From positions 248,001-312,000 of the forward strand of contig CT868119.1 in the NCBI GenBank assembly GCA_000165425.1: 64,000 nt of DNA. Reading direction: 5' to 3'. The position numbers were made by a program, and so were the translations under genes. A model generated the notes under the pieces. That model ran no database searches and was not told the origin of the DNA. It saw nothing but the letters and a program-made list of their open reading frames with translations. Every line of letters starts with the position of its first letter. Position 1 is the first letter of the stretch. This document shows, piece by piece, positions 59,749 to 64,000 of this stretch. Source of the DNA: Paramecium tetraurelia (lineage: Eukaryota).

Positions 59749-60696
59749 ATGGGCTAGAGTTGTGCATCTTGTTAGAATAAAGATGAATCTACTGCAGGCT
59801 ATAATTGTATGGAACAGAAGGATTAGTTTGATGAAGAAAACCTAGACGACAGTTAAGAATTTGATGCTAGTATTACATTATTATAGTCAAGAAAGTCCTC
59901 CATCTACATATCAATGTAAAACAATGGAAGCGGATATTCTGCAGTTTTAAAAGGTTATCCCAAAAGAGAAGGAAGAGGAAATTTTTGAGGAAAGAAAGGA
60001 ACAATAATTGGTATTTGAGGATAAATCGCGATATGAGGGTAGTATAGTAAATGGAAAGGCCAATGGTTTTGGAAAATTACACTTTGAAAATGGGGACTAT
60101 TATTAAGGTGAATTCGTTGATAATATGATGGAAGGAAATGGAACTTATAATTATGCAAAAGGTCCTTTTTATGAAGGGCAATTTAAGTCAAATAAACCAG
60201 ATGGTATTGGGGTAGAAACTTGGCCAGATGGATCTGTTTATGAAGGAGAATTTAAGGGAGGTCGAAAACACGGAAGAGGCTGTTATAAGTGGTATTAAGG
60301 CTGTTTTTACAATGGGGAGTGGAAGGATAATCTGATACATGGTATCGGAAAATATGAATGGCCTGATGGAAGGGTATGGTATAGTAAATATTGCAGTCTT
60401 ATTCTGGAAGTTGGGTTAAAAATAAAATGCACGGTCGAGGAAAATATATATGGAAAGATGGGAAGAGTTATGATGGAGAGTACTAGTATGATAAAAAAAG
60501 CGGTTTTGGCATATTCCATTGGCCTGATGGAAAATAGTACTAAGGTTAATGGTTGGATGGAAAGTAGCACGGAAAAGGATTAATGATAGGGAAGGATGGT
60601 AAGAAAAAAATAGGGTCTTGGTTGGAAGGCAAACTGATGAGTTCCATTGAGGATGACAATTTCTAAATTATACCAGACGGTTGGATTTAAGAATGA
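59749..60696 (+). CDS. MORN-repeat protein with N-terminal acylation motif
   Basis: MGQSCASC, repeats YEGSIVNGKANGFG, YEGEFKGGRKHGRG, YNGEWKDNLIHGIG. One +1 T near 59945-59948. Confidence 0.93.
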
Positions 60697-61177
60697 CAAT
60701 GATCTTATTATATTGTTCTCATAGTGATCTAATAGCAATTGTTTATATTGAACGCCTAACATAAAAATTTATTTTGGAACCTTTTTACAATATAATTTCA
60801 GTATTCCCTATTTCCGTTTCTATGAATTTATAACAATTTAGTTATTATTATTAAAGTTTGTGTTTTGAACATAGTTCCTTAAAAACTTAAATATTTATTA
60901 GTTTTATATTGAACATTTAGTTTAAAGGTTAAAAAATCTAAAAACTTATTGCTTAAGAAAATATCAGTTCTGACTAACAGAAATTCAAATCTATTCAATA
61001 ATATTAATAAAACTAACATATTAAATGTTAAAGTATCATTCATGTTAATTCAAGTTAACTTGTGATAAGATGTGATTCATCCTTTTACAAAATTAAAATT
61101 AAGCAAAATAATTTTGAATTAAATTTAGTATAAAATATTTAAGTTTTTATGTTAAATTAACCTCCAAATTATTAAAA

Positions 61178-62145
61178 ATGAAAAATAAAAGACAAGCACA
61201 ACATATTTCTGATGAATCTGGACTTACTTACTTTGAGGTATTCTAAAAGGCCATTTCAAAATTCGAAGTTGATAACTAAAAATAAAATCACAAGCAAGAT
61301 AGTGATCGAATAACAATATATGAGGATTTGAAATTGATCTTAGAATTATCTAAAATCAGTTAAATTGAACCACAGCATTTTGAAAAAATATCAGTACTGC
61401 TTAAAAGATCTAAAACAGTCTTAATGAAGAGGTAATAATTAAGGTTAGAGTAGATATCGAGAGTACTTAAAGAATATAAATCAAGATGACTTACAAACAA
61501 TATTTTCGTTTCTGTAACAAAACGGGGCTTATGGATATCTCATTTTTAATTTGGAAAACGGATCGTACAGATTATAAGACATTGAGCCAATAAAATAATA
61601 GGATTCTCCAAATAAGACCCCAATTCAAACACCAATAAAAAAAATATATCAGTAAACTGCACAAGCATCTGCAATCGATCATGCACAATAATAACAAAAG
61701 ATAGAGCCAGAATCCTTAAAAAAAATAAAACCAAATAATTTTTTTTAATTGTCTGCAAAGTAAAGTTCTTATTCAAACTTTTAGTTCAAAATATGACGTT
61801 TCTCATAAAAAAACCAACCCTTTTAAGTAAGAATAAGTTGTCTTAGATGCAGAGTAGAAACATGAATAAGAGGAACTTAAATTTACATTGAAAATACTAT
61901 CTGAAAGTTTAAAGATATCATATTAAGAATTATGTCAAAGGATGTATCAGTGTTCTGGAGATTTGAATACACTCTTGGATGTATACTTAAATCGTTAAGA
62001 AAATTTGCTTTGGACAAAGGAAGCAGATGAAGCCTTAAATGCTTACTTTATCGAGGAAAACTAATTTGAAAAACAAAAATTAAGAGCAATCCTACATGGA
62101 GAAGAGTAGATATAAAAGAGAAAGGAATGGTTATATGGAAAATGA
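61178..62145 (+). CDS. Rap1/TERF2IP-like protein (Myb domain plus RCT domain)
   Basis: Introns 61432-61453 and 61760-61784. Myb-like RITIYEDLKLILEL...KRSKTVLMKRYREYLK. C-terminal LSESLKISYQELCQRMYQCSGDL...LLWTKEADEAL...LHGEEQIQKRKEWL. Confidence 0.68.
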
Positions 62146-62200
62146 GAGTAGTAGTTTAACAGAATTAATGATTCTTATCAAATAAATTTTAATAACAAAC

Positions 62201-63081
62201 TCATTTATGTGCAGTAGCATCCATTTTAAGAATATCAGATGGCAACATGATGTGATTTCTAGATTCAGCTAAAATAGCAGATATCTCTCTTGCATATTCA
62301 ATCCTTCTGACATCCAAGAAGGCTAAAAGAACATTAAAATACAAAATACCTGGATTAGTTAAGGCAGATTTTCCTACTAATTCAATAGATTTAGCTTCTC
62401 CCAAGGCCTTGATTACAATACTTTTCTTGGCTTCTCTTGCTTATTCGACAACAAACTTGGCTCTTTCAGCTTCTTATTGAGCAACTTATTTAGCTTCAAC
62501 TGCTTCCAAATATTCTTTTCCAAAAGTGAGTTCTGTAATTGATACATCGTCGATTGCAATTTTGAATTAGGCTGCTCTTTAATCTAGGGCTTGTCTGATT
62601 TTGAATGAAACCTAATCTCTTTGACTCATCAATTAGGAGGCAGTATATTAGGCCACAACAGATCTCATAGTTTCATTAACAATGGAAGGTAACACTTTTT
62701 CATCATAATCAATTCCCAAATTTCTATAAATGGTTGGAAGATCATCACTGTAAGGTCTATGGAGTACTCTGAGAGTCAATAGAACATTTTGCATATCTTT
62801 TAGAATATTTTAAAAAGGGGGATACCTCTATTGGCTGTATTGGCCTTGATTTGTCTTGGTCTTGTCTGGATATTATAATCAATGGGGGTCTCGAAGTAGG
62901 GAATTCTGAAATGCCATCCTTCCTTGTACTTTTCTTCTTGGAGTCCGAAAAACTTGCTGAATTTGATAGCACAATGTCCAGGCTCAACAGTGAAAAAGCA
63001 ATTTTTAACCAAGAAAATGCCGAAAATACCTGCTGTTCCAAGACTCATAAGCATTTTTAAGGATTCTACTTAGGCAGCCAT
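62201..63081 (-). CDS. PHB2: Prohibitin-2
   Basis: [83 protein letters not shown]. Confidence 0.95.
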
Positions 63082-63123
63082 CTATCTAAGATTATATTTG
63101 TGTTGGAAATTTAATTAATTAAA

Positions 63124-64000
63124 ATGGGGGTACCCGCATTCTTCAGATGGCTTTGTGCCAGAAATCCAAAGGCTCTATTGGAAGTCTTGGAAAACTCAGA
63201 TGAATCCTGCTTGTCAAACAACCCAGATATTGATAATCTCTACCTTGATATGAATGGAATCATCCATCCCTGCTCTCATCCTGACTAAGGAGGCATTCCA
63301 ATTCCAGTCACATATGATGACATGTTTGTGAATGTATTTCACTACATAGATCGTTTAGTTGATATTGTTCGTCCAAAGGAATTGATATATATGGCCATAG
63401 ATGGTGTTGCCCCAAGAGCCAAATTAAATTAGCAAAGAAGTTTAAAAATACAATAAATCTATATAGGTCGTAGATTTAGAGCAGCCTAAGAATCCATTCG
63501 AATTCAGAAAGAAAAGGAACGTTTACGAGATTACTGGCGAACTTAAGGCTTAAATTCGGACGCTTTAAAATACATATATTGAGAAAAACTTTGATAGTAA
63601 CTAAATTACTCCAGGAACTGAATTTATGCAAAAGTTGAATATTGCCTTGCAGTATTACATTTATGATAGAATGAACAATGTAACAATAAATTTCATCTAA
63701 TATTAGAATCCTCTATTTAGAAATGTTCTCATAATTTTCAATGATTCAAGTATCCCAGGAGAGGGAGAACGACAAAATCCTTTAATTTGTTAGAGATCAA
63801 AGAAAACAAATGAATTATAAAACAGTTAGACATTGTTTGTATGGAGCAGATGCTGATTTAATTATGTTGGGTTTGAGTACACACGAACCATACTTCTATG
63901 TGATAAGAGAAACAATTATGGCTAATGATGATAAACAATGTTCCATTTGTTAATAAAAAGGTCATTTCTTTACCGATTGTAAAAAGAGAGAGAAGGTGAT
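63124..64000 (+). CDS. XRN2: 5'-3' exoribonuclease 2 (Rat1/XRN2); 5' part, runs off the window
   Basis: [68 protein letters not shown] (after indel correction), [15 protein letters not shown], and zinc knuckle [14 protein letters not shown]. Confidence 0.95.

Follow-up and report, generated by a model that had tools for sequence, protein, structure and literature searches.

A three-exon gene on the plus strand (61178-62145) of the 64,000-nucleotide stretch of Paramecium tetraurelia DNA analyzed here (the window) encodes, in the ciliate code, a 36-kDa protein of 306 amino acids, P0004, which is probably a nuclear adaptor of the ciliate Pat1 family and would belong to a branch of the Rap1/TERF2IP superfamily that lacks the BRCT domain, most likely acting in a complex of the Pot1-Tpt1 type. 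Rap1 has been called the most conserved telomere protein, telomeres and telomerase were first discovered in ciliates, and the Paramecium genome is one in which chromosomes are fragmented and telomeres are added de novo. To read the Pat1 family as Rap1 homologues without a BRCT domain, as sequence profiles and predicted structures suggest, appears to be new; in searches of openly available full texts, reviews included, we found neither a ciliate Rap1 nor homology between Pat1 and Rap1 described.

Gene model and transcription

The coding sequence of 921 nt (306 codons plus stop) is open in all exon frames under translation table 6 and contains 4 + 8 + 9 = 21 in-frame TAA/TAG codons, decoded as glutamine (Q). 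Because of these 21 codons there is no standard-code ORF at the gene, as the initial annotation had noted when it described the protein as invisible to the standard ORF track. The spliced reading frame of about 306 codons that it had proposed for the same interval is confirmed by the open exon frames, by an annotated protein, and by a spliced RNA contig, and every peptide string cited there is found within P0004. When we searched with exon 3, the protein was returned as a 306-aa ‘unnamed protein product (macronuclear) [Paramecium tetraurelia]’ with 100% identity across the exon, and its sequence maps onto all three exons in the window (Table 1). The gene already carries an annotation but no name.

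A 1044-nt RNA contig from run X3 spans 61136-62226, omits exactly 22 nt at 61430 and 25 nt at 61760, and shows no other difference from the window across the gene. The initial annotation had named splicing that breaks the frame of the C-terminal domain as a refuting result; the contig keeps this domain in frame. No splice joints were listed among the raw 58-nt reads over the gene, and the evidence for the introns consists of the X3 contig, the annotated protein, and dips in read depth at the introns. The MORN-repeat ORF on the upstream side stops at 60696 and the contig starts 42 nt ahead of the ATG, which leaves no place for a hidden upstream or BRCT exon. In two runs (X22 and X23), oligo-dT RNA reads lie across the exons and their first mates map to the minus strand in every case; the RNA is therefore probably plus-strand. 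Across three oligo-dT runs of one study we observed peak depths over the gene (61176-62143) of 14.1 (X22), 5.9 (X23), and 2.7 (X24), whereas the depth of the convergent neighbor (62188-62300) was 82-106 in all three alike; because depth varies between runs while that of the neighbor is steady, expression of P0004 looks regulated.

The 3’ ends of the P0004 and Band_7 transcripts overlap by ~10-25 nt, given that Band_7 reads start at 62203-62214 and the P0004 contig reaches 62226. Inside the Band_7 gene, 19 of 73, 38 of 85, and 46 of 100 RNA reads, like the X3 contig, differ from the window by A>T at 62237, which probably reflects variation between strains or alleles.

Table 1. Coordinates of the P0004 gene, its predicted domains, and the flanking genes in the window
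Feature	Position	Strand	Details
5’ UTR, minimum extent	61136-61177	+	Spliced RNA contig of run X3 begins at 61136
Start codon, ATG	61178-61180	+	P0004 gene
Exon 1	61178-61431	+	Residues 1-84 and two bases of codon 85; N-terminal helix, Myb helices 1 and 2
Intron 1	61432-61453	+	22 nt, GT..AG; interrupts third Myb helix; omitted in RNA contig
Exon 2	61454-61759	+	End of Myb, helix and beta-hairpin wing, disordered linker
Intron 2	61760-61784	+	25 nt, GT..AG; omitted in RNA contig
Exon 3	61785-62145	+	End of linker, entire RCT domain, TGA stop
Stop codon, TGA	62143-62145	+	P0004 gene
3’ UTR, extent of RNA contig	62146-62226	+	Overlaps 3’ end of convergent Band_7 gene
Myb-like three-helix domain	61307-61475	+	Residues 44-92; crosses intron 1
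Helix and beta-hairpin extension (wing)	61476-61592	+	Residues 93-131
Disordered basic Q-rich linker	61593-61836	+	Residues 132-204; crosses intron 2
RCT (Rap1 C-terminal) domain	61837-62136	+	Residues 205-304; six-helix bundle
MORN-repeat protein, upstream	60367-60693	+	E 3.4e-20; ORF ends at 60696
SPFH/Band_7 domain gene, convergent	62204-62878	-	Pfam E 1.9e-22
XRN-type 5’-3’ exonuclease N-terminus, downstream	63079-63582	+	E 7.7e-41

Resemblance of both domains to Rap1

Comparison of exon 3 with Pfam yielded one notable match, to Rap1_C (PF11626), which covers residues 227-303 of P0004 and profile positions 3-83 of 84 with an E-value of 4.4e-5 and a score of 23.9 bits, just short of the curated cut-off of 24.2; the full-length protein scored 21.3 bits, also under the cut-off. 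Rap1_C ranked top in all seven Paramecium homologues (best E 7.5e-5) and was reached at E<=0.1 by 16 of the 19 distant homologues scanned, two of which passed the cut-off (P0023, 25.8 bits; P0027, 36.5 bits, E 5e-9), and the three proteins in this set with no Rap1_C match were P0012 (an N-terminal fragment), P0016 (which has a different C-terminus), and P0048. The RCT domain of P0004 lies at the extreme C-terminus, consistent with membership of the Rap1/TERF2IP superfamily, and has a net charge of -5. In the HMMER alignment, the family columns SGD-L, L-W-t..eD..L, and kG...i.kR.eyl align with human SGEL, IWSRQDDIDL, and FGAQNVARRIEF. The landmarks on which the initial annotation had built its RCT proposal are thus real, column for column with human RAP1, at an identity of 17% to the human RCT, although the final spacing is G-x6-R-x-E-W and not the G-x4-5-R given there.

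Profile searches extend this resemblance to the N-terminal half of the protein. Using a 49-sequence family alignment (A2) as the query against PDB sequences, we recovered full-length human RAP1/TERF2IP (8rd4_D) at E 1.4e-12 and 51.1 bits, with profile positions 19-78 aligned to human residues 125-189, the Myb domain (independent E 0.01), and positions 109-266 to human residues 206-398, finishing in the RCT, such that Myb and RCT are matched in the same order in both proteins. The same profile matched the human RCT (3k6g_A) at E 3.7e-4, the human Myb domain (1fex_A) at E 1.1e-3 as the best Myb match, and the yeast Rap1 RCT (3owt, 3cz6, and 4bj5) at E 5-7e-3. Against the same database, exon 3 alone gave chance-level matches (E>=0.8), a Paramecium-only profile gave one match (CPSF3, E 0.16), and the single sequence of Tetrahymena Pat1, a family member discussed below, stayed at chance level (E 0.85). 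In Pfam, the single Pat1 sequence matched Rap1_C weakly (E 0.022, 15.2 bits). The chance-level yield of single-sequence searches is probably the reason that the Rap1 homology was overlooked. Herpesvirus U14 (PDB 5b1q_A) also matches the RCT part of the family profile at E 0.0054, about the level of the yeast Rap1 RCT, and may be a chance match.

The AlphaFold2 model of P0004, made with A2, contains two confident domains and a disordered linker between them, with pLDDT values of ~95 for residues 17-130, 82-97 for residues 205-304, and <50 for residues 135-195. When we compared this model with the PDB using Foldseek, ranks 1 and 2 were the two chains of human RAP1 RCT bound to TRF2 (3k6g_A and 3k6g_B), each at a probability of 1.00 and with TM 0.80/0.85 and rmsd 2.4/2.0 A, and yeast Rap1 RCT chains followed at ranks 5, 9, and 13. 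A model of Pat1 again placed 3k6g first with a probability of 1.00; no match of either model against the PDB reached E<=0.001, and a search of the ESM Atlas gave a best score of 0.82, under the lead threshold and so uninformative. The initial annotation had named the lack of a significant Rap1_C profile or structure match for the last ~95 residues as refuting; for the last ~100 residues we obtained both kinds of match.

At the N-terminus, the model predicts one helix ahead of the Myb domain, with helices in the exon 1 region at residues 18-32, 47-58, and 65-75. The Myb fold is clear in the models of P0004 and Pat1 despite the lack of a Pfam Myb match in P0004, at E<=10 for the exon pieces or E<=1 for the whole protein. 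Generic Myb models gave sub-threshold matches on the N-terminal domain of 6 of 19 relatives, and Myb_Rap1 (PF08914) was sub-threshold in 2 of 8 further relatives (best 22.6 bits versus 27.1). The Myb domain is followed by a helix and beta-hairpin wing (helix 95-108, strands 112-119 and 122-130, pLDDT ~96), for which no counterpart in human RAP1 was found in the A2 profile alignment. Its positions D97, I101, G109, G112, Y113, L114, and F116 are conserved in >=70% of alignment rows and are the most conserved of the family, and Myb plus wing is the most widely matched part, with many N-domain-only matches in the search with the Paramecium profile described below.

No BRCT family was found in any of the 35 family proteins scanned with Pfam, and only 43 residues precede the Myb domain in P0004. 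A 2024 review attributes BRCT, Myb, and RCT domains to all known RAP1 homologues; given that the BRCT is missing, we treat P0004 as a BRCT-less homologue or variant and not as a canonical Rap1. The combination of a probable Rap1-type Myb domain and a C-terminal RCT without BRCT, as first put forward in the initial annotation, is backed by the sequence profiles and the predicted structure.

We considered whether the resemblance might instead be fortuitous or convergent, P0004 being an ordinary Myb/SANT protein whose helical C-terminus is unrelated to the RCT, with no homology to Rap1. Its sub-threshold Pfam score and low identity to human RCT would allow this, as would the likeness of the W-x-x-E/D-D-x-x-L motif to a Myb first helix, weak Myb/SANT matches on the C-terminal domain (2lr8, 6jui, and 1h88, E 0.5-8, A2 profile), and a Myb_DNA-bind_6 match on residues 378-403 of P0027. 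Set against these points, the two domains each best match the corresponding Rap1 domain, in the same order and in a single protein, the Pat1 model repeats the result independently, two relatives score above the curated Pfam cut-off, and the one characterized family member is a telomere protein. We regard chance or convergence as highly improbable and consider both domains of P0004 very likely to be homologous to those of Rap1.

The charge distribution of the N-terminal domain bears on a different question, namely whether P0004 is a direct duplex-telomere binder whose Myb and wing read double-stranded repeats in the manner of budding-yeast or trypanosome Rap1, and hence the missing ciliate duplex binder. 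The Myb segment (residues 44-92) is basic, with a net charge of +5 and a pI of 9.8, R77 and R85 are nearly invariant across the family, and Linger et al. (PMC3204076) describe the duplex telomere binders of Tetrahymena as unidentified. However, the wing carries an acidic net charge of -4, the N-terminal domain as a whole is neutral, the Myb domains of human and fission-yeast Rap1 do not bind DNA according to a review, and a contrary point made by Linger et al. (PMC3204076) draws on their own unpublished data. We therefore judge direct duplex binding to be distinctly unlikely, and a role for P0004 as a non-enzymatic protein-protein bridge, not a sequence-specific DNA binder, would be the probable one.

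The linker between the two domains has a net charge of +6 and differs in length between species. Two motifs within it are invariant in the seven Paramecium homologues, a P...I.TPIK stretch (residues 137-147, about 61608-61640 in the window) and SANSKY (residues 185-190, about 61752-61794), which may be phosphorylation, nuclear import, or partner-binding linear motifs.

Pat1 family membership and phylogeny

A profile of seven Paramecium sequences (A1), searched against 1.84 billion representative proteins, returned 43 proteins with E<=1e-3, of which 13 reached E<=1e-10, and the named family members include proteins from Tetrahymena utriculariae, T. malaccensis, and Pseudocohnilembus persalinus, in addition to further P. 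tetraurelia paralogues. At least four family members, in three lineages, are present in P. tetraurelia (P0004, P0056, P0038 [CAK72274.1], and P0063 [CAK58017.1]). Among the best 8000 candidates from a 5.8-billion-protein set, the A2 profile added only Paramecium paralogues, and tblastn with P0038 found no second copy inside the window. P0038 is reported on a scaffold of 570,993 bp, the same size as the scaffold bearing the P0004 gene, and lies outside the window.

A1 also matched a Tetrahymena protein, P0020, at E 2.5e-11, which is 88% identical to Pat1. Searching with the Tetrahymena protein, we retrieved the 378-aa T. thermophila protein P0065, titled ‘hypothetical protein TTHERM_00013120’; Table 1 of one paper gives this locus the name PAT1 (‘Pot1 associated in Tetrahymena 1’). 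The supplement to Linger, Morin and Price 2011 (PMC3204076) prints a Pat1 sequence of 378 residues and 44.7 kDa along with the positions of mass-spectrometry peptides, and P0065 agrees with it in length (378 aa), computed mass (44,674 Da), position of the peptide at 44-53, and, by eye, the printed sequence. BLASTP aligns residues 13-303 of P0004 with residues 10-370 of P0065, end to end, at 23% identity and 50 bits, and the same architecture is predicted for both proteins. This full-length, collinear similarity identifies P0004, at the level of sequence, as a member of the Pat1 family.

To place P0004 within the family we used a maximum-likelihood tree (IQ-TREE) of 32 full-length members, with fragments and P0047 excluded. 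The clade of the window’s gene comprises two sub-clades, one with P0004 and the other with P0056 (support 100/99). Its sister, with weak support (89/89) and a long branch, is the P0038 group, and the P0063 group is separate. The Pat1 clade, the three Paramecium lineages, and others form a polytomy (69/78 support) with long-branch warnings. Given the three family lineages in Paramecium, P0004 is a candidate one-to-one orthologue of Pat1, and we hold it possible, if rather doubtful, that P0004 is the Pat1 equivalent in Paramecium. P0047 (1716 aa), which was kept out of the alignments as well as the tree, is probably spurious as a family member given its FAR1 domains in Pfam. Nine of its stretches match profile positions 81-125, in the wing, at E 1.8e-4, and the protein carries repeated FAR1 DNA-binding domains; these matches could be chance, or they may point to kinship between the wing and a portion of some other DNA-binding repeat.

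Predicted telomeric role and wider relationships

What is known of family function comes from Tetrahymena Pat1, and Linger et al. (PMC3204076) report that Pat1 co-purifies with TAP-Pot1a, that it binds the TPP1-like Tpt1 directly and does not bind Pot1a, that its enrichment at rDNA telomeres in ChIP equals that of Pot1a, and that its depletion leads to gradual telomere shortening with little growth defect. Pat1 is presented in the same paper as a novel protein with no recognizable fold or family (PMC3204076). The Tpt1 binding, ChIP, and telomere shortening are thus Tetrahymena Pat1 data, whereas P0004 is known here from its sequence, models, and RNA. The initial annotation had envisaged P0004 as marking an arm separate from the POT1/TEBP-type complexes, for duplex telomeres or silencing. 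That separation is probably mistaken, the family member in Tetrahymena, Pat1, being a subunit of the Pot1a-Tpt1 overhang complex, and we found no evidence of a silencing role for P0004.

By homology with Pat1, P0004 would most likely sit in a Pot1-Tpt1-type telomere complex, where it would modulate telomerase access or promote telomerase action. All of the solved RCT complexes among the structure matches hold a helical peptide of a partner (TRF2, Sir3, Rif1, or Rif2), and the RCT of P0004 probably captures a short helical partner peptide in like fashion, as in human RAP1-TRF2, fission-yeast Rap1-Taz1, and budding-yeast Rap1-Sir3/Rif. The Myb-wing module probably gives a second contact. On the analogy of Pat1, we lean toward the P0004 paralogue itself working at telomeres.

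The number of paralogues also leaves room for a different reading, in which P0004 is a non-telomeric adaptor in chromatin or transcription, for instance in gene regulation or developmental genome rearrangement, and another paralogue does the job of Pat1. This would fit the presence of at least four family members in P. tetraurelia, the polytomy of Pat1 with three Paramecium lineages, RNA depths that suggest regulated expression next to a steady neighbor, and the off-telomere activity of yeast and mammalian Rap1 described in published abstracts. However, the sole family member studied by experiment is a telomere protein, and both domains and the family-conserved residues are intact in P0004. 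We consider a non-telomeric role unlikely, albeit slightly less so than direct duplex binding, and continue with the telomeric adaptor.

Comparison with better-known systems sharpens what would be particular to the ciliate proteins. Tetrahymena thermophila Pat1 shares with P0004 a predicted N-terminal helix, Myb domain, helix and beta-hairpin, disordered linker, and RCT, and differs in its longer linker (378 aa versus 306 aa in total) at ~23% identity. Human RAP1/TERF2IP (3k6g, 1fex, and 8rd4) differs from P0004 in having a BRCT and no helix and beta-hairpin after the Myb domain, and it is recruited to telomeres by TRF2, whereas the ciliate relative Pat1 partners the TPP1-like Tpt1; to our knowledge, no TRF2-like partner is known in ciliates. 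S. cerevisiae Rap1 (RCT in 3cz6, 3owt, and 4bj5; DNA-binding domain in 1ign) binds DNA directly via tandem Myb domains and recruits Sir and Rif proteins, and it has a BRCT as well as an RCT that, at 151 residues, is larger than that of P0004. The arrangement proposed for P0004 resembles the bridging by fission-yeast Rap1, except that contact with the TPP1-like subunit would be direct here. As proposed for P0004, S. pombe Rap1 is a non-DNA-binding bridge in a shelterin-like complex linked to the Pot1-Tpz1 overhang module (PMC3204076), and its Myb and RCT domains are described in a review. Unlike Pat1, it has a BRCT and reaches Tpz1 via Poz1 and DNA via Taz1, whereas Pat1 binds Tpt1 directly.

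A broader proposal, which we advance tentatively and hold as somewhat less probable than its opposite, is that the Pat1 family is the missing ciliate Rap1. An ancestral protein with Myb and RCT, shared with animals, fungi, and trypanosomes, would have lost the BRCT, gained the winged extension, and come to dock directly on the TPP1-like subunit, so that the ‘overhang complex’ would be a compacted shelterin; the Paramecium paralogues, at least four in number, would have divided the work, with separate copies serving, for example, macronuclear and germline telomeres, or de novo addition at fragmentation sites. If true, the Pot1a-Tpt1-Pat1-Pat2 complex could be read as a shelterin-like assembly, in which the RCT groove may hold a peptide, either from Tpt1 or from a duplex binder still to be discovered, and a second contact may come from the Myb-wing. 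Rap1 would then reach the Alveolata, strengthening the case for an ancient Rap1-containing complex, and the BRCT would be dispensable in a Rap1-type telomere protein. The Paramecium paralogues, together with sample-dependent expression, would provide a handle on telomere management in a chromosome-fragmenting genome. Trypanosoma brucei RAP1 is, according to a review, likewise a protist Rap1 of weak sequence homology and late recognition.
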